DNA of 37,074 bases from a virus (Duplodnaviria; Caudoviricetes): positions 1 to 37,074 of the IMG/VR virus record IMGVR_UViG_3300043449_001791. One strand, written 5' to 3'. The notes under the pieces were generated by a model, which was given only the letters and a program-made list of their open reading frames with translations, was not told where the DNA came from and did not search any database. The translations under genes and the position numbers were made by a program. Of this stretch, positions 5,358-17,006 are shown in pieces; position 1 is the first letter of the stretch, and every line of letters starts with the position of its first letter.

Positions 5358-6525
5358 AAAAACTGAAAAATCTCAACTGTACTACGCTTTTGGCGCCATT
5401 TCCGGCAGCCGCAAACCCATTCCCCTAGCCAAGACCCGCTCCGAATCCGTCGCCATGCTGGCCCGCATCCTAGCCGGCGTTGAAATTCCCAAAACCAAAA
5501 CCCTAGCAGGCCATCTTAGCAACTGGGCCGCCGCCTTAAAACTGGCCGGGATCACGCAGGCCCGCCAGCGGGAGGTCGTGGCCAAGGTCAGGCGCATTCT
5601 GGAAGCCGCCGGCGTGATGCAAAGTAAAACGATCAGCGCCGAACAGGCCAGAGCCGTGTTTACCCGCTGGGACACCGAAAAAAAACGCTGGAGCGCTCAA
5701 ACTAAGTCTCATTACCTCAAGGCTTTAAATCAGTTTTTACGGCACGCCGGCCTGCCCGCTATACGAATCACCCTTCCAGTAATCCGAGCCAATAAAACCT
5801 ACCAGCGGGGCGCCCTGACCCCGGAGCAGGCCGCCGCCCTGATCCACGCCGCCGCCGCTGGTGCACCCTACCGGGGCTTGCCAGGACAACGCCGGGCCCT
5901 ACTGTACCGCCTAATCCTGACCACCGGCCTAAGACGCAAAGAGGCCATGGGCCTGACCCATGAACATGTGCAGCAGTCCCGAATATCCCTGTTAGCCCAC
6001 GAAACTAAAAACCGGCGCCCGGCGGAGATCGACCTGGGCCCGGAGCTATCGACCGCACTGGCCACCGTGGGCCAGGGCCGGATCTTTCCCGGCACATGGG
6101 GCGACCGCTCCGCCGTCATGGTACGCCGGGACGCCGCCGCCGCCGGAATCAGCGTGCCCTTTCGCCTGGACTTGCACACCCTGAGACACACCTTTATAAG
6201 CTGGTGTGCAGCTAAATTTCGGGTGGAGATCACGCAAAAACTGGCCCGACATTCTACCAGCGTGCTTACGCTAGACTACTATACGCACGCTAAAAACGAT
6301 GATGTTAACGCCGCAGCAGCAACCATTGAAGACGAGCTAAATAGGTGTGCAAATAGGTGTGCAAATATTTTTGAAAATGGGGGCGGCGCCGGAAACCAAA
6401 AAAATCAAAACAGTAAAAATCCCCGGAAAAAACTCTATTTAATAATGCGCCCGATAGGAGTCGAACCTATAACCTACGGTTCCGAAGACCGTTGCTCTAT
6501 CCAGTTTTTGCCGCAAATAATTTAA
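5275..6525 (+). CDS. int: Tyrosine recombinase / phage integrase
   Basis: TGLRRKE (Arg), TKN (Lys), LHTLRHTF (HxxR), LARHST...TLDYYTH (His, Tyr nucleophile). Confidence 0.95.
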   Translation: MPSIRKLNRVRYYDAHGVQCPPAAATTKKTEKSQLYYAFGAISGSRKPIPLAKTRSESVAMLARILAGVEIPKTKTLAGHLSNWAAALKLAGITQARQREVVAKVRRILEAAGVMQSKTISAEQARAVFTRWDTEKKRWSAQTKSHYLKALNQFLRHAGLPAIRITLPVIRANKTYQRGALTPEQAAALIHAAAAGAPYRGLPGQRRALLYRLILTTGLRRKEAMGLTHEHVQQSRISLLAHETKNRRPAEIDLGPELSTALATVGQGRIFPGTWGDRSAVMVRRDAAAAGISVPFRLDLHTLRHTFISWCAAKFRVEITQKLARHSTSVLTLDYYTHAKNDDVNAAAATIEDELNRCANRCANIFENGGGAGNQKNQNSKNPRKKLYLIMRPIGVEPITYGSEDRCSIQFLPQII

Positions 6526-7559: not shown

Positions 7560-7754
7560 ATGTTCTTAGATCAAAACGTGGGGGGCATATGGCAGACTTG
7601 GAAACAAATCGCAGAATTGGAAGCCAAACGACAGCTAATCGAAAATTACGACCCGACCTTGGCACGGGGGCTGGCCAGAAAAATTCAACGGCGCACGGCA
7701 GTGCTGGCGACACTGGTCGCCCAGGATGCGGAGCAGCAGGGGAAAACGGATTAA
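7560..7754 (+). CDS. Small hypothetical protein
   Basis: AGGAGG RBS before ATG 7560; 64 aa, helical. Confidence 0.65.
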   Translation: MFLDQNVGGIWQTWKQIAELEAKRQLIENYDPTLARGLARKIQRRTAVLATLVAQDAEQQGKTD

Positions 7755-7954
7755 TTTTTATCAGTCGGCGGCGGCCAAAGTCCTTCAACTTTGAGGGCTT
7801 GTTCCAGCAAAATTGTGATAGTCATCTGCATCGAACGACGCCATTTCGAGGAATGGGCTTCCAAGGCTTTTTGCAAGTCCCAGGAATCGCAAACCCAGCC
7901 CTTGTACAGCGTTTTTCGTTCATTAGTTTTTTTAGGTCGTGCCATAGCGCTCAT
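7751..7954 (-). CDS. Arc/ribbon-helix-helix-like regulator, candidate repressor
   Basis: MARPKK start; DLQKALEAHSSKWRRSMQMTITILLEQAL helix pair; divergent from the early operon. Confidence 0.6.
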   Translation of the reverse strand: MSAMARPKKTNERKTLYKGWVCDSWDLQKALEAHSSKWRRSMQMTITILLEQALKVEGLWPPPTDKN

Positions 7955-8011
7955 GTTAAACCCCTTTGCAACATTAGCCAATCCATAATTAGTATATCAC
8001 TAATATTTTTA

Positions 8012-8102
8012 ACTAGTTTAAAAATAATTCTTTTTTACTAGCTATCACTTGTTTTTTACAAGTTATCATAGTATATACTAGTATTAACTAGTAAAAACTA
8101 GT
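8012..8102. promoter_or_regulatory. Divergent control region with a phased ACTAGT-like operator array
   Basis: Exact ACTAGT at 8012, 8077, 8087, 8097; variants at 8037 (ACTAGC), 8047 (ACTTGT), 8058 (ACAAGT), 8067 (CATAGT); very AT-rich. Confidence 0.7.
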
Positions 8103-8133
8103 GTTTACTTTCCAACTTTCCTAGGAGTTAGCC

Positions 8134-8505
8134 ATGACCACATCAGACCGAGTCGAGCTAGAGATTGAAGCCGCCAAAATCCGGCGGGAGCAACTGGAAA
8201 CAGAATTAGCTATTAAGGACAGCTTGCGGGCGCTGGAAGCGCATGAAACTATTTTGGCGGCGGCACCCGAATCAATCAGGGAATACGCCCAAGGATTAGA
8301 GCGGAGCGATTGGAATTTCCAAGTGCGCTTTGACCTGCCCAATTTTTCCATTCTAGGGCGGATATCCAAAATGAAACTACATCCCCAGGTCGAATGGCAT
8401 TGGACAAGGCGCAACGCCTGGCATCATGTCCACACCCTGGATGAAGCATTGGTCTATGGCGCAGAGCAGGGCGCCCGGTGGGTCGATATCCCCCCACCAT
8501 TCTAA
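8134..8505 (+). CDS. Hypothetical early protein
   Basis: AGGAG RBS; N-terminal coiled coil; first gene of the rightward operon. Confidence 0.7.
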   Translation: MTTSDRVELEIEAAKIRREQLETELAIKDSLRALEAHETILAAAPESIREYAQGLERSDWNFQVRFDLPNFSILGRISKMKLHPQVEWHWTRRNAWHHVHTLDEALVYGAEQGARWVDIPPPF

Positions 8506-8584: not shown

Positions 8585-8785
8585 ATGGCAGGAAGACTAA
8601 ACGGATTAGTCATTAAGGTGAAAGAGGGGGAGCGTTTCCTTCTCAACATGGATGGCACGTCGTGCTGGGTCGGCGTCGCCGGCGTCGGCACAAGCGCAGC
8701 TCGACTTGTCGTCGATGCGCCTAAAAACGTGGTGGTGGTACGTGAAAAAATCATTAAGGAGTTAGAACGATGCAGACAGCTATAG
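8585..8785 (+). CDS. csrA: CsrA/RsmA-like carbon storage regulator
   Basis: LVIKVKEGE...ARLVVDAPKNVVVVREKI aligns with the CsrA pattern LxRKxGE...VRLGIxAPxxVxVxRxEI; AGGAGG RBS. Confidence 0.7.
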   Translation: MAGRLNGLVIKVKEGERFLLNMDGTSCWVGVAGVGTSAARLVVDAPKNVVVVREKIIKELERCRQL

Positions 8786-10172: not shown

Positions 10173-11099
10173 ATGAAGATGACTACTATTACCAGCGTTA
10201 AATTTATGCGCCTAAAGCGAAAGCTGGGCCTTACTCATTGGCAGGCCGTGGGGCTTCTCGAAAGTCTGTGGGTGTTTGTTGCCGCCAATGCCATGGCCGG
10301 CGACGTCGGCAGGCACACCAATGAGGACATTGCCGCCGCCATTGAATGGTCGGGCGATTGCGACCAGATGATCAATGTTTTGGTCGAAACCGGGTGGCTG
10401 GATAACCACTTGGAATGCCGGCTGGTAGTCCACGATTGGGACGAACATTGCCCGACCTACATCAAGGGCATCATGTCCAAGAAGGGCAAAACGTTTTTTA
10501 CTAGGGGCGACCTTAGTAGCCCCGGAGAAGCGTCTCCGAGTGGACTAAGTAGCCCCGAAGCCCCGCCTGCAACCGACCTTAGTAGCCCGGTGGGTGGCTC
10601 TCCGGCCTTACTTAGTAGCTCGGAGGCCCCACCTTCGACCCTACTTAGTAGCTTGGAGGCCCCACCTGCAACCCTACTTAGTAGCCCAGGAAACCCGCCT
10701 GCAGAGCTACTACCTAGGCAAGGCTATCCTAGGCAATTCAATTCAAGTCTTGCCAAGGGGGGGCAGGCGGCCACCCCGGAACCCGCCCACCACCTGACGA
10801 CCACTTGGAACTTCTACGCCCGCGGCAGCCGCCCAGGCAATGAGACTTTTCCGAAGGTCATCGAAGTTTTTGCCGAGGCCCTTCGCCGTGGAATCAAGCC
10901 GGCGACGATTCAAGCGGCCATTGAAGACCCCAAGCGTGACCGCACCGAGCCGCTATTTTTGTTTTCGGATCGCGAACTTCGCCCCCAGCAGCGCAAGGGC
11001 CCGGCGACGCCAAAAAGCACCGAAGAACTTTTGGACGCCATGACCGCCGATTCACGCCAAAGGGACGTGCTGGAGGTGGCATATCATGGGCGAAACTAA
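10173..11099 (+). CDS. Putative replication initiator protein
   Basis: N-terminal wHTH-like region (KFMRLKRKL...AVGLLESLW...GWLD...HDWDEH); internal iteron-like repeats; position in the replication module. Confidence 0.7.
   Translation: MKMTTITSVKFMRLKRKLGLTHWQAVGLLESLWVFVAANAMAGDVGRHTNEDIAAAIEWSGDCDQMINVLVETGWLDNHLECRLVVHDWDEHCPTYIKGIMSKKGKTFFTRGDLSSPGEASPSGLSSPEAPPATDLSSPVGGSPALLSSSEAPPSTLLSSLEAPPATLLSSPGNPPAELLPRQGYPRQFNSSLAKGGQAATPEPAHHLTTTWNFYARGSRPGNETFPKVIEVFAEALRRGIKPATIQAAIEDPKRDRTEPLFLFSDRELRPQQRKGPATPKSTEELLDAMTADSRQRDVLEVAYHGRN
10509..10706 (+). repeat. Six iteron-like repeats at 33-bp period (candidate replication origin)
   Basis: CT(T/A)AGTAGC at 10512, 10545, 10578, 10611, 10644, 10677; the fullest copies contain the inverted repeat CTACT-T-AGTAG. 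Confidence 0.8.
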
Positions 11100-11841
11100 C
11101 TTGACCACGCAGGCCGACGCCGCCGCCGAGAAAGCCGCCTGGATGCGCTGGGGAGATTATCACCGCACCCTTTTCGGATGGCATTCCGACAACGATGGGC
11201 GCATGGTGGCCACATGGATCGGATTTTTCAGGCGATCAGGATTCACGCCCGAGGAAATGCAGGCCGCCACCGATGGCGTCGCCCGTCAAGAGATTCCGCC
11301 CTTTAGCCATGAGAAACATTTAAACGCCTTGGAGCAACATGCGTTGATGTTTCGCCGGGAAAAAATCAAGCGCACCGCCTACGCCGTGGCCGAAGAAAGG
11401 GGCACTTGCACCGATTGTTTTAACTCCGGCCTGATCAGCGTCCCTTGGTTGCCCGACGTGGTCGATGGCGTCTGGTGCAGCACCCGTACCGCATCCGTGT
11501 GGTGCCGCTGTGCCGATGGCCGAGTGTACGCCGGCGTCAAGGATCACCGGGACAGGCCGCTAATGGGCAGCACCGAATACTTTACCCGCAATCCCAAATG
11601 GCGCCAGCAGATGGCGGAGCGCCAGGAACTAAAAACCGAGAAGGCGATTTTAGTCGAGGACATCGAAATGGCCGCCGGCGGCGACACCAAGCCCCGAGCC
11701 GTGCTAGACCGGATTATTACCCGCATGTCGGTTCGCTTTGGGCTTATCCCCGGAGATGAGCCGGAAAAAATTGACCCCGCCAGCGTGGCGTGGTCAGAAG
11801 GTCGTGTAACTAAGGATTGGAAACCAGGAGACCCCGTATGA
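11086..11841 (+). CDS. Zn-binding replication-associated protein (possible helicase loader)
   Basis: CTDCFNSG...WCRCADG motif; directly follows the initiator. Confidence 0.5.
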   Translation: MGETNLTTQADAAAEKAAWMRWGDYHRTLFGWHSDNDGRMVATWIGFFRRSGFTPEEMQAATDGVARQEIPPFSHEKHLNALEQHALMFRREKIKRTAYAVAEERGTCTDCFNSGLISVPWLPDVVDGVWCSTRTASVWCRCADGRVYAGVKDHRDRPLMGSTEYFTRNPKWRQQMAERQELKTEKAILVEDIEMAAGGDTKPRAVLDRIITRMSVRFGLIPGDEPEKIDPASVAWSEGRVTKDWKPGDPV

Positions 11842-12278: not shown

Positions 12279-12280
12279 GA

Positions 12281-12353
12281 TCCCTCAGGGGCGGAGCGCA
12301 GCACCAGCGCAAGAGAACTCCAGGGAGACCACGGTACCCCGCCCGCCGTGGTC
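12281..12353 (+). ncRNA. Candidate structured RNA element (two stem-loops, possible pseudoknot)
   Basis: TCCCT/AGGGA, GGAG/CTCC and GACCACGG/CCGTGGTC stems; GGGCGG (12289) is complementary to loop CCGCCC (12339). Confidence 0.35.
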
Positions 12354-12394
12354 ATTTAAGCTTAAGGGCCAAAATGATTTAACACGGGGCAGGC

Positions 12395-12574
12395 ATGGAT
12401 CAGTGGGAACCATTACGGGACGAGGCCCGACGTCGCCGACTTTTGGAATTGCAATGGAAACCCACACCTAACACCCGCAGGTCATGGACTGACCCCACGG
12501 GGCAGCAGTGGCCGGAAGCGAAAGCTTTTGAGTGGCTACGACAGAATGACGACCCAGTCCATCTGAGGTTCTAA
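12395..12574 (+). CDS. Small hypothetical protein (59 aa; not in ORF track)
   Basis: MDQWEPLRDEARRRRLLELQWK...WTDPTGQQWPEAKAFEWLRQ; TAATG overlap with the next gene. Confidence 0.6.
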   Translation: MDQWEPLRDEARRRRLLELQWKPTPNTRRSWTDPTGQQWPEAKAFEWLRQNDDPVHLRF

Positions 12575-13458
12575 TGCCGAAAAAAGCCAAGGATACAGGC
12601 TCAAACGACGATTGGAAAATCGAACGCACTGATAGCCACGTTCATCGACTAGTCGCCTATTACTCTCGCGTCAACGACACCCGCACCATCTACGCCTTAT
12701 CTGATTTGCACTGGGACAGCGCCCATTGCGAGCGGGATATTCTAAAAAAACATCTAGACGCCGCCGTTCAAGAAAACGCCATGATTATTATGGTCGGCGA
12801 CGTGTTTGACCTGATGCAAGGCAAATGGGATCCAAGAAGGGATCAAAGCGTCTTAAGGCCCGAACATCGGGGCAACTGCTACCTGGACAGCGTGCTAGAC
12901 ACCGCCGTCGAATGGTTCAGCCCTTACGCCAAACACATCGCCCTGATCAGCCCAGGCAACCACGAAACTAGCGTGCAGGCCCGCAACGACACGAACATGA
13001 CGCAGCGTTTTGCTGATGGATTGCGTCCCCATGGATTCCGGGGCGCCGTGGGACAATATTGGGGCTGGATAATTTTTCAAAGTAATTTGTACAACAGCGT
13101 CGCTACCAGGCGCATTCATTATCATCACGGCTACGGCGGCGGCGGCGAAGTGACGAGAGGCTTGATTGACAATAATAGAACCCGTGGCCAGTACGAGGGC
13201 GGCGACGTGTATTTGTCCGGGCATATTCATCGGCGCAACGTCGATGAAAACAATCCAATAAGAGTCAGCGCTAACGGAAATTTAGAAATGGCGCAGCAGT
13301 TTTTTTTACGATGTGCCAGCTACAAAAATGAACACACCGACGGCTGGCATGTATCCAAGGGCCGGGCAGGGCGACCTATTGGAGGTTGGGCGATTGACTT
13401 GACATTCAGTCGAAACAAAAAATTATCACATTTAAACATCGCAACAAGGATGCTATGA
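12574..13458 (+). CDS. Calcineurin-like metallophosphoesterase
   Basis: SDLH, GDVFD, GNHE, HHG and GHIH motifs in canonical order. Confidence 0.9.
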   Translation: MPKKAKDTGSNDDWKIERTDSHVHRLVAYYSRVNDTRTIYALSDLHWDSAHCERDILKKHLDAAVQENAMIIMVGDVFDLMQGKWDPRRDQSVLRPEHRGNCYLDSVLDTAVEWFSPYAKHIALISPGNHETSVQARNDTNMTQRFADGLRPHGFRGAVGQYWGWIIFQSNLYNSVATRRIHYHHGYGGGGEVTRGLIDNNRTRGQYEGGDVYLSGHIHRRNVDENNPIRVSANGNLEMAQQFFLRCASYKNEHTDGWHVSKGRAGRPIGGWAIDLTFSRNKKLSHLNIATRML

Positions 13459-14472: not shown

Positions 14473-14979
14473 GTGCAGGTTGAACTATCTCCCGCCGATA
14501 TCGGCGTGATACACACGTTAGGCGCATTGCGTACCGCCGTTTCCAAAGCGAGCGGCGCAACTCCCAGGCAGTTTGGGCATGATCAAACCGCCGTCGATGT
14601 GACCGGCGTTGCCGCCGAATACGCCTGGGCGAAACATCACAACACCTTCCCGGATTTAACTTTTACTTCTAGGAAAAACGGCTACGACAATCTCACCGCC
14701 GGCAAACGGGTCGACATCAAATCGACCGCGCAGCTATCGGGCCGGTTGATCAGCAACCCCCAACAAAACAACCCCGACGTGGATTTGATGGTGCTTGCCA
14801 TCGTGCAATTACCCATCGTGCATTTCGTGGGATGGTGCAGGCCGGATGAGCTACGCCGCCCGGAGCATCTGATCGACCTGGGGCATGGCCCGGTTTACGC
14901 CTTGGCGCAGGGACACCCGGCGCTTAGACCGTTCAAAAAAGCATTGAGGAAAACACCCGCCGCAGTGGCGGGCGATTAG
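14473..14979 (+). CDS. Hypothetical protein with PD-(D/E)XK-like motif
   Basis: GVAAEYAW...GYD...VDIKST pattern; GTG start. Confidence 0.55.
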   Translation: MQVELSPADIGVIHTLGALRTAVSKASGATPRQFGHDQTAVDVTGVAAEYAWAKHHNTFPDLTFTSRKNGYDNLTAGKRVDIKSTAQLSGRLISNPQQNNPDVDLMVLAIVQLPIVHFVGWCRPDELRRPEHLIDLGHGPVYALAQGHPALRPFKKALRKTPAAVAGD

Positions 14980-15007: not shown

Positions 15008-15187
15008 ATGTTAGCGATTCTTTTGACCTTGGCGCTTGGCGCCGGCGGCGATTGTTTCGGCGGCCAGTGCAGCGCAGCCCGTGGCGCCCGTGTCAGCGTG
15101 CAAACCACGACCACCCGAGTTGTGAAGCGGGAGCGGTGCGGCAGGCTGTTCCAACGTCGTGGCAAGTGCGGCGGCGGCTGTCGCTAA
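15008..15187 (+). CDS. Small exported Cys/Gly/Arg-rich peptide (59 aa; not in ORF track)
   Basis: GAGGAGG RBS; MLAILLTLALGAGGDCFGGQCSAARGARVSVQTTTTRVVKRERCGRLFQRRGKCGGGCR. Confidence 0.7.
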   Translation: MLAILLTLALGAGGDCFGGQCSAARGARVSVQTTTTRVVKRERCGRLFQRRGKCGGGCR

Positions 15188-15195
15188 TCCGACCA

Positions 15196-15265
15196 CACCG
15201 CAACCGGCACGCCCTATGTGGTAGTGGGGCGACGCCGGGCCGATATTCACCTTTTCGGTGCGGTG
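15196..15265 (+). ncRNA. Three-way-junction structured RNA, unit 1
   Basis: P1 CACCGCA/TGCGGTG; A; P2 CCGGC/GCCGG plus CGCCCTA/TGGGGCG; G; P3 CCGA/TCGG. Confidence 0.65.
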
Positions 15266-15273
15266 CTAACTTA

Positions 15274-15344
15274 CCCCCGCAACCGGATCGTTAGAAGGTA
15301 AATACTGACGGGCCGGGCCGGTAAACGCAACAGCGGTGCGGGGG
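15274..15344 (+). ncRNA. Three-way-junction structured RNA, unit 2
   Basis: P1 CCCCCGCA/TGCGGGGG; A; P2 CCGG/CCGG plus TCGTTAG/CTGACGG; G; P3 CCG/CGG; same topology as unit 1. Confidence 0.65.
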
Positions 15345-15365
15345 CTTTAAAAACAAAAGGAAAAA

Positions 15366-15614
15366 ATGAAATTTAAAATACTGGCGATAGCTACATCGCT
15401 TCCAGGTTGGGTAGCAAAATTTAGCCACGAAAACGGTTCAACAACTTATAAGCCTGTGGCTTTTTGGGCGATTGTTAATGATGAAGGTTTTTTAGGACAT
15501 CGTGTAGTAGGTTTTAGCGAAACAGATGGCACAGGATTTTGCCCCGATGATTCACACGAAAATTTTGAAGGTTGGACAAAGATTGACTACTTAAAAACGG
15601 GAAACAATGATTAA
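15366..15614 (+). CDS. Hypothetical protein (AT-rich cassette)
   Basis: 82-aa ORF with AAGGA RBS directly after the RNA units. Confidence 0.65.
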   Translation: MKFKILAIATSLPGWVAKFSHENGSTTYKPVAFWAIVNDEGFLGHRVVGFSETDGTGFCPDDSHENFEGWTKIDYLKTGNND

Positions 15615-16650
15615 ATCTGAATGCTTAATAGATACAGATAGCAAAAAATGGGAAACGGAATTAAAATCTTTAGCCCAAAAAGGAAATGACTTTCTTTTAA
15701 AAGCAGAAAAAGCATTTTATTATTTTGAAGGCAGAAGTAGCAATCATCAAAAAATTGATCAAGGAGCTACAGCAGCGGTAGAATTTTTAAGTAATTTTCA
15801 AAAATCCGCTGAATATGCGAATGCAATTATAGCTCAACACAAAAAATGGTTGGAAATGGTGAAATACCACTACCGACTTACTAAGATTGATTTTTCAAAC
15901 CAAAGTATCAAAATTGATTTTGAATCTTATTATCACGAAGAAGACACATTTAGTTTATTTTACGAAAGAGGGAATAAACGCTGGGGTCACACAAAACCCC
16001 ATGGGGATTTAATAGTTGAGTCAGGCATGTCTAGTCACTATTTAGAAGGCATTACAGACGTTTTAGAAGCATTTGTAAAAACAAATCATTTTGAAAATTT
16101 AATAAAAAAAGACCGGCACGAACGTGCCCATGATTGCTTTGATTGGCCTAAAATATCCAAGCAAAAAGATATAGAAAAAATATGCAACCTTTTAAAAGAT
16201 CAAGTGTTTTTAGACCTTATTCAAGAAAACAAATTGCAAGATATTATTAATTCTTACGACGCCTATCGGCAATCTAACACCGCACGAAAAACAAATATTC
16301 GCCTTAAAAACATAATCTCAAGAGTATGCACTGTACAAAGCATGCCGCAACCGCCAGGAGCGTTTTGCAAAGCTAAAGACACCGCCGGCATGGGAGAAAA
16401 ATCCGGTGTTTATTTTGGTTGGAAAGGCGAAACTTGTTTTTACGTTGGCAGAAGCAACCACATTGAACACAGATTAAAATCGCATCATGTTATAGGCTTG
16501 GATGATGAGGTCTCTTGGCTAGAAATGCCAGACGAAGATACCCACGCTAACGAATTGTTTTACATTTGGTTATTAGAACCAGAATGCAACGGACAAATAA
16601 AATTAGCTGAAAAATCAAAAAAATTGGAGGACACAAAGCCCACTCCATGA
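15607..16650 (+). CDS. Protein with C-terminal GIY-YIG nuclease domain
   Basis: SGVYF...FYVGRS..IEHRLKSH...E...LEPECN matches GIY-YIG; N-terminal ~250 aa unrecognised; AT-rich. Confidence 0.75.
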   Translation: MIKSECLIDTDSKKWETELKSLAQKGNDFLLKAEKAFYYFEGRSSNHQKIDQGATAAVEFLSNFQKSAEYANAIIAQHKKWLEMVKYHYRLTKIDFSNQSIKIDFESYYHEEDTFSLFYERGNKRWGHTKPHGDLIVESGMSSHYLEGITDVLEAFVKTNHFENLIKKDRHERAHDCFDWPKISKQKDIEKICNLLKDQVFLDLIQENKLQDIINSYDAYRQSNTARKTNIRLKNIISRVCTVQSMPQPPGAFCKAKDTAGMGEKSGVYFGWKGETCFYVGRSNHIEHRLKSHHVIGLDDEVSWLEMPDEDTHANELFYIWLLEPECNGQIKLAEKSKKLEDTKPTP

Positions 16651-17006
16651 CCCACCCCTACACCCTGACCATTCCGCCCTCGACCAACCACCTCTACCGC
16701 CGCCGGGGCCGGCATACCTTTAAGACTCAGGCCTACACCGATTGGATTACCGAAAACACCCTGACCATCGGCAAAGCCAAACCCCACCGCAGTTACCCGG
16801 CCAAGATCCATATCAGCATTCACGGGGGCAAGGGCTGGCGGGTCTCCAGGGACATCGACAACGCCGCCAAAGCCTGCCTTGACCTGATGCAATCCATTGG
16901 CGTTCTAGCCGAGGATAACACCCAGCACATCAACCATTTAGTCATCAGCTACATCGAGCCAAAAAGCCTGAAAGATGAAGCGTTTGTGACATTGGTCATT
17001 TATTAG
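16647..17006 (+). CDS. rusA: RusA-family Holliday junction resolvase
   Basis: PPSTNHLY...RDIDNAAKACLDLM...GVLAEDN. Confidence 0.9.
   Translation: MTHPYTLTIPPSTNHLYRRRGRHTFKTQAYTDWITENTLTIGKAKPHRSYPAKIHISIHGGKGWRVSRDIDNAAKACLDLMQSIGVLAEDNTQHINHLVISYIEPKSLKDEAFVTLVIY

Follow-up and report, generated by a model that had tools for sequence, protein, structure and literature searches.

A tandem pair of three-armed RNA units in a tailed temperate phage: a clade-restricted RNA family with candidate antisense targets at early-gene starts

The C4 RNA of phages P1 and P7 (Rfam: RF01695) and the CI RNA of phage P4 are the closest described counterparts of the RNA units reported here, which they resemble in outline (PMC5320573, PMC4825925 and PMC2864571). 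Both are about 70-80 nt long and form a three-stem junction, in which a short P3 (4-5 bp, loop about 12 nt) starts right after P2. Their loops are believed to base-pair with early mRNA of their own phage, close to a ribosome-binding site, and their targets flank the RNA within about 100 nt on the same transcript. C4 has a P1 of 17 bp, a P2 with a short tetraloop and 7 nt of single strand between P3 and P1; it occurs singly and starts with GG at its processing site.

The stretch analysed here (the window) is a whole record of 37,074 bases, by gene content a tailed temperate phage. Its genes include an integrase, RecT, a replication initiator, SSB, RusA, terminase, portal and tail genes, almost all on the + strand, and the phage comes from freshwater and estuary metagenomes. 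The features of the RNA locus are:

15008-15187, + strand: 59-aa ORF with a hydrophobic N-terminus, conserved cysteines and an arginine-rich end, always ahead of the RNA
15196-15265, + strand: unit 1, three-way junction P1 (6 bp)-AA-P2-P3-P1
15216-15224, + strand: P2 loop of unit 1
15244-15254, + strand: P3 loop of unit 1
15274-15344, + strand: unit 2, same junction as unit 1, homologue of the lone type C unit in relatives
15295-15304, + strand: P2 loop of unit 2
15321-15333, + strand: P3 loop of unit 2
15346-16641, + strand: cargo slot with ORFs 15366-15614 and 15607-16650, replaced or empty in relatives
16647-17006, + strand: RusA-like resolvase gene, the right boundary of the slot

The unit limits are drawn with full P1 stems, which leaves a spacing of 8 nt between the units. 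The pair starts 8 nt past the stop of the 59-codon ORF and ends 21 nt ahead of the next start codon. A preliminary description of this DNA had claimed two units on one scaffold, and the scaffold is indeed matched twice in the window (15198-15263 and 15277-15341), with no match in 100 dinucleotide shuffles. The covarying outer P1 pair is present as described, A-T in unit 1 and C-G in unit 2. In unit 1 the minimum free energy (MFE) structure is the three-way junction (z -3.4); in unit 2 the junction is 0.3 kcal/mol less stable than the minimum, and the MFE and centroid structures show P3 open or partly formed. The claimed preference for the + strand also holds, since this strand folds better than the - strand in both units, and does so in 9 of the 10 units examined across the clade. 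The loops were said to be unrelated, which needs correction: the P3 loop of unit 1 complements the P2 loop of unit 2 at 9 of 10 positions, a complementarity matched by 29 of 5000 shuffles. The motif GTAAA is common to both loops of unit 2. One run typed as RNA (X20) contains a single 158-nt contig over 15030-15169, and the units fall outside it.

The clade of relatives was assembled by searches with flanking proteins and with sequence patterns, which returned one clade only. Every member has some structure in the same slot. L144 has the same tandem pair as the window, G001, G003, G004, G008 and G007 have one three-way unit (type C), and in G002/G006 and L215 a long hairpin accompanies a three-way unit (types A and B). 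A more distant relative (L218-L220) has a plain GC hairpin of the same stem type in the slot, without a three-way unit. All seven three-way units that we decomposed share the junction P1-A(A)-P2-P3-P1 with a P3 loop of 11-13 nt, comparable to that of C4 and CI, and 86 of 90 junction-proximal cells are paired. Double-sided changes occur at 9 of 15 positions and at 3 of 15 once the type B units are left out, whose homology rests on position and topology and which a window-built model did not find. The pairs were counted after decomposing the units by their folds, because MAFFT aligned the divergent ones incorrectly. With a covariance model built from window-type units alone, a check suggested in the preliminary description, four of the five non-training matches are type C units in the same slot, albeit only at E 0.15-2.

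Between the window and L144 the RNA region is identical at 147 of 149 positions and four flanking stretches at 89-94%, and in the A/B pair the RNA is conserved no better than its flank (89% each). The strain differences inside units number six, every one in the 5' arm of a P2 stem and none in a loop; by inspection four of them are paired and pair-preserving and two lie within an internal loop. As the events are few, this pattern is only suggestive support for the fold. The loops are fixed among close strains and vary only between units and between lineages. The G004 RNA is identical to that of G003 at 72 of 73 positions while the upstream DNA is 83% identical, which suggests exchange of the module.

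Wider searches returned little beyond the clade. The strict scaffold pattern had no viral match and matched 36 metagenome and 61 genome loci, and only 2 of these 97 passed a fold filter: L144, a true member, and L116, which sits within a 266-codon open frame and was taken as a chance match. A loose pattern matched at least 113 viral loci, judged to be chance by eye among the matches listed. Two further patterns gave 39 and 3 loci, of which 5 and 3, respectively, came from known clade records; the remaining 34 looked like chance. BLAST against annotated phages gave no match, and a fold scan across the window and part of G001 showed no additional convincing copy. A literature search did not find a description of this RNA, and the part of the supplement to the viral RNA catalogue of Fremin et al. 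2023 (PMC10690425) that was searched contained no match. We conclude that the units at 15196-15265 and 15274-15344 are a real, uncatalogued and clade-restricted RNA family.

The comparison with C4 had been put forward on the basis of size and multi-stem shape. Rfam holds no relevant match for the window, the locus or seven relative loci. The C4 model itself (gathering threshold 45 bits) had no match at E<=5 in the window and none at E<=10 in 15150-15400 or in the seven relative loci, with P1 and P4 as positive controls at 68.8 and 74.9 bits. The anatomy of the junction differs too: in the units P1 has 6-10 bp, P2 is long and its loop open, P3 and P1 are separated by 0-1 nt, and the junction strands measure 2/0/0 or 1/0/1 nt. 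Unlike C4, they occur singly or paired and start with C or U. The predicted targets presented below lie 4 and 7 kb upstream rather than beside the RNA. As for flanking targets in the C4 style, p<0.05 was reached by only 2 of 20 cognate pairs on the downstream side and 1 of 20 on the upstream side. Membership in C4 was thus rejected on model match, junction anatomy and the arrangement of flanking targets.

The suggestion that the stacked P3 and P1 stems mimic a tRNA for RNase P processing found no support in the sequence. Measured against a 12-bp acceptor/T stack with a 7-nt T loop and a 3' CCA, the units have a tRNA-like stack of about 11-16 bp, but their P3 loop has 11-13 nt, a 3' CCA is missing in 10 of 10 units and they start with C or U. 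ARAGORN found nothing. As a further known class, int-alpA (Rfam: RF02996, threshold 35.8 bits) gave only a 9.8-bit match elsewhere (12328-12368) across the five records searched, and differs in that the loops of the units do not track the gene directly downstream. Small RNAs derived from 3' untranslated regions, as described in PMC9438474 and, for CisR, PMC13250501, likewise lie directly after a stop codon and have a GC stem and a U-rich tail. The units differ from these in pairing by loops on a closed three-way scaffold, in being tandem and phage-borne and in having predicted targets in the same operon. The phage RNAs sar (P22), OOP and aQ (lambda) likewise adjust, through pairing, lytic or lysogenic genes of the phage that encodes them (PMC12197685). 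They are transcribed opposite or next to their targets, whereas the units are sense-strand, distant and imperfectly complementary.

The units sit in the 3' untranslated region of the 59-aa ORF (15008-15187), which is kept in all relatives and has no family match. Downstream, the left breakpoint of cargo exchange coincides with the 3' end of the RNA, just past the last P1. The cargo differs in L144, G001, G004, G006 and L215 and is absent in G003 and G008. One run contains a 1294-for-1645 replacement spanning 15346 to 16641, and a single sample contains three alternative continuations after the RNA. Cargo genes include ParB-like, GIY-YIG and HATPase genes.

It had been stated that no convincing target was found in the window. 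We found two candidates, both at starts of genes upstream of the units:

8100-8143, + strand: predicted target 1, start of gene 8134-8505 (leader at 8100-8112, first codons at 8137-8143)
11072-11085, + strand: predicted target 2, start of gene 11086-11841 (ribosome-binding site and spacer)

Gene 8134-8505 is the first of the early operon, past a rightward promoter-like site at 8055-8084. Gene 11086-11841 directly follows the replication initiator and carries a lead, no firmer than that, to a helicase loader; the proteins of both genes have no Pfam match and no significant PHROG or fold match. Together with its flanks, the P2 loop of unit 2 is predicted to pair over 13 bp at 8100-8112, the best of 3760 sites genome-wide. 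For the P3 loop of unit 2 an 8-bp pairing is predicted at 8101-8108, first of 44 start regions in the window and only 493 of 4206 genome-wide with flanks. The P2 loop of unit 1 could form 7 bp at 8137-8143 over the start codon of gene 8134 (rank 2 of 44), and its P3 loop, with flanks and one bulge, 13 bp at 11072-11085 over the ribosome-binding site (rank 1 of 44). Across the four loops, gene 8134 ranks 2, 40, 1 and 1 and gene 11086 ranks 35, 1, 25 and 19 among the 44 start regions, so that for each loop one of the two genes comes first or second. The convergence of three loops was reached in 4 of 500 shuffles, a count to be read with the 5-mer shared by two of these loops, both of unit 2. Ranked genome-wide with flanks of 2 nt, the main site of gene 8134 is 1 of 3760 and that of gene 11086 is 2 of 3624. 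A genome-wide enrichment of 7-bp complements was not clear. By accessibility-corrected energies the cognate pairs have only a modest advantage, and for two of the swaps a pairing derived from the stem scored equally well.

The same two genes emerge in G003, whose RNA has other loops: gene 8134 ranks 1 and 3 and gene 11086 ranks 2 of 36, and genome-wide the corresponding sites of the orthologues are 22 of 4654 and 3 of 4487. Both genes together were reached in 3 of 600 shuffles in G003 and in 26 of 600 in G001. The leaders of gene 8134 have only 10-18 of 40 positions in common (18 of 40 for the G003 leader). By protein searches, gene 8134 has at least one further lineage (P0035-P0037). Among 35 orthologous genes in three genomes, 8134 and 11086 rank first and second, at 8, 0 and 2 of 220 shuffles by three statistics. 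Swapping the RNAs between lineages takes gene 8134 from -7.85 to -0.31 and the match is lost; the best gene in the swapped combination has -7.0 compared with -8.2 for the best cognate gene.

G001 is weak in these tests, with 40, 78 and 33 of 200 shuffles for the window and G001 alone and genome-wide ranks of 394-1740. Even so, gene 11086 comes 1 of 37 in this genome, and the gene 8134 ribosome-binding site is preceded by two short sites in the correct order. Other window sizes gave 8, 49 and 41 and also 15, 16 and 14 of 200 shuffles. In the A/B lineage, which is without gene 8134, gene 11086 ranks 5, 26, 2 and 20 of 28 with strict loops and 2, 12, 5 and 1 with flanks, so the result hinges on the loop boundary chosen. 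In G004 gene 11086 is only 5 of 21. Loop differences between G001 and G003 are not accompanied by compensating target changes. As G001 and G003 share one RNA type, only two lineages are clearly independent; moreover, the targets were first spotted in a joint table, so the later tests were not blind, and shuffle p-values range by test from <0.005 to 0.4. On sequence grounds we consider the support for the targets moderate, being strong in G003, weak in G001 and boundary-dependent in the third lineage.

A third site was considered in the type C relatives:

G003 12540-12563 and G004 13183-13207, + strand: portal-start complement of the type C P3 loop

The P3 loop of G003 and G004 has a perfect 11-12 nt complement just before the portal ribosome-binding site. 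As a general target the portal start was rejected, as this perfect match is restricted to G003 and G004 and is absent from the window, G001 and G006.

Taken together, we lean towards the units being antisense regulators of the early genes 8134 and 11086 with a C4-like action, a reading that we consider likely by a modest measure, judged from the genomes themselves. As structured modules that follow a small phage gene within its 3' untranslated region, the units would display short loops for antisense pairing on a fixed three-armed scaffold. They would be freed from a longer transcript, with a 3' end set by the GC-rich P1 and a short U tract or by trimming, and would pair in trans with RNA encoded 4-7 kb upstream. 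Pairing at the start regions might block ribosome loading and so damp the early and replication programme, perhaps through negative feedback late in the lytic cycle or by adding a second layer of immunity in lysogens. More speculatively, contact between the P3 loop of unit 1 and the P2 loop of unit 2 could keep both loops inactive in the uncut precursor. Of the proposal that this is an array of scaffolded antisense or guide RNAs with programmable loops, the scaffold stands, with a conserved junction, differing loops and pair-preserving changes in relatives, and the loops probably act by pairing, given the candidate targets. Nothing points to a protein-guided guide RNA, and the array of programmable loops is to be dropped, with at most two units per locus and loops that are fixed among close strains.

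The 3' position of the units also fits a structure acting in cis, a terminator, attenuator or exonuclease block that ends or stabilises the message of the small ORF and insulates the cargo slot, with loops that have no specific partner. The plain GC hairpin of the distant relative has the same stem type in the same slot, 3-6 T follow within 8 nt of the last P1 in 8 of 8 loci, and the cargo breakpoint lies at the RNA 3' end. Taking at least 5 T in 8 nt as the mark of an intrinsic terminator, 5-6 T are present in five of the eight loci, but the tract of the window itself has only 3 T. A scan for consensus terminators does not flag the units either, although its loop limit of 8 nt makes it blind to stems with large inserts. 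An end structure has no need of a conserved three-way junction, tandem copies or strain-fixed loops, and the ranks of 8134 and 11086 would go unexplained. As the full account of the units we find it unlikely. Such a role is nevertheless compatible with antisense action, and it is probably ancestral because the distant relative has the plain hairpin and the tails are U-rich. Alternatively, the RNAs may act in trans on host mRNAs or on genes of competing related phages, the matches to the own genome being partly chance or a by-product. In favour of this reading, the G001 RNA fits the G003 leaders better (ranks 1, 3 and 20, 1) than its own (13, 7 and 17, 1); the apparent module exchange between G003 and G004 and their portal match point the same way. 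The RNAs of the window and of G003, however, match their own genomes best, and we hold targets elsewhere to be rather improbable.

Two further explanations place the function beside the units or in the DNA. A leader in cis that sequesters the ribosome-binding site of the adjoining cargo gene, as in int-alpA or the C4 a2/b2 arrangement, could draw on the two downstream loop-leader pairs with shuffle p <0.05 (L144 and G004) and on the decoy-like look of the complementarity between the unit-1 and unit-2 loops. About one such match is expected in 20 tests, though, and none is in the window. Furthermore, one RNA precedes several unrelated cargo leaders, two records have no cargo at all and the int-alpA model has no match at the locus, so that we regard a leader function as very unlikely. 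The least credible explanation to us, which we would be surprised to see hold, is an element acting as DNA, either a REP-like repeat or a recombination or cassette site that drives cargo exchange. The coincidence of the swap breakpoint with the RNA 3' end speaks for it, but homologous recombination alone produces such a breakpoint where a conserved block adjoins a variable one. At odds with a DNA element are the G-U pairs, which make 9 of 10 units asymmetric between strands, and the strain differences that turn G-C into G-U; moreover, neither the far end of the slot nor the rest of the genome has a second copy. For a REP-type repeat in particular, only two adjacent copies are present and none of the 61 genome loci is a convincing match.

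Going beyond the antisense reading of the units, we tentatively propose a re-targetable antisense module that may have grown from a terminator hairpin. In this scenario, which is possible rather than probable, the junction is kept, the loops are rewritten as the start regions of early genes drift and a second unit is added when a target escapes. The result could be an RNA-only layer of immunity or competition among related phages, of which the hairpin, single and double stages are all extant. The P3 loop of unit 2 still fits the 11086 site of relatives (ranks 2-3), and the added unit 1 fits that of the window. If true, the family would be a second, structurally distinct answer to the loop-display antisense design of C4 and CI, in phages of a host group (probably Planctomycetota, a weak lead) in which our literature search found no such RNA. 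The plain-hairpin, one-unit and two-unit states in one slot form a rare series for work on the origins of regulatory RNAs, and the named target sites make the antisense claim directly testable. As known at present the family is narrow, and its reach is limited accordingly.

The pointers to the host group are a CsrA-like gene and a sub-threshold Atlas match. The phage itself encodes this CsrA-family protein as gene 2 of the early operon (8585-8785, + strand). A 3' piece of a tRNA just after the integrase (6446-6514, - strand), with an anticodon read as TCG (Arg), is likely the attachment site and could reveal the host.

Several other elements of the genome were observed. Divergent from the early operon is a 67-aa leftward ORF (7751-7954, - strand) without a family match, and between the two lies an AT-rich stretch (7985-8100) with repeated ACTAGT palindromes; these are likely a repressor and its operators. 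G001 shares this region; those of G003 and G002 are different. Two genes contain tandem repeats that keep the frame: a tail-fibre-like gene (1212-1643) with repeats of 36 nt and the replication initiator gene (10512-10703) with repeats of 33 nt, the latter being a candidate origin.

A conserved intergenic structure of two hairpins follows the SSB gene (12279-12365, + strand) and is also found in G001 (9313), G003 (4589) and G004 (3710). Its comparison with Rfam gave nothing above chance. The downstream stem varies on both sides among relatives, and its C-rich loop complements a G-rich stretch within hairpin 1, which may form a pseudoknot. Finally, a hairpin with a CCCGC/GCGGG-type stem lies at the 3' end of the gene preceding the 59-aa ORF (14956-14976, + strand). 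It was found in 8 of 8 records checked, has a variable loop and is flagged as terminator-like on the - strand.
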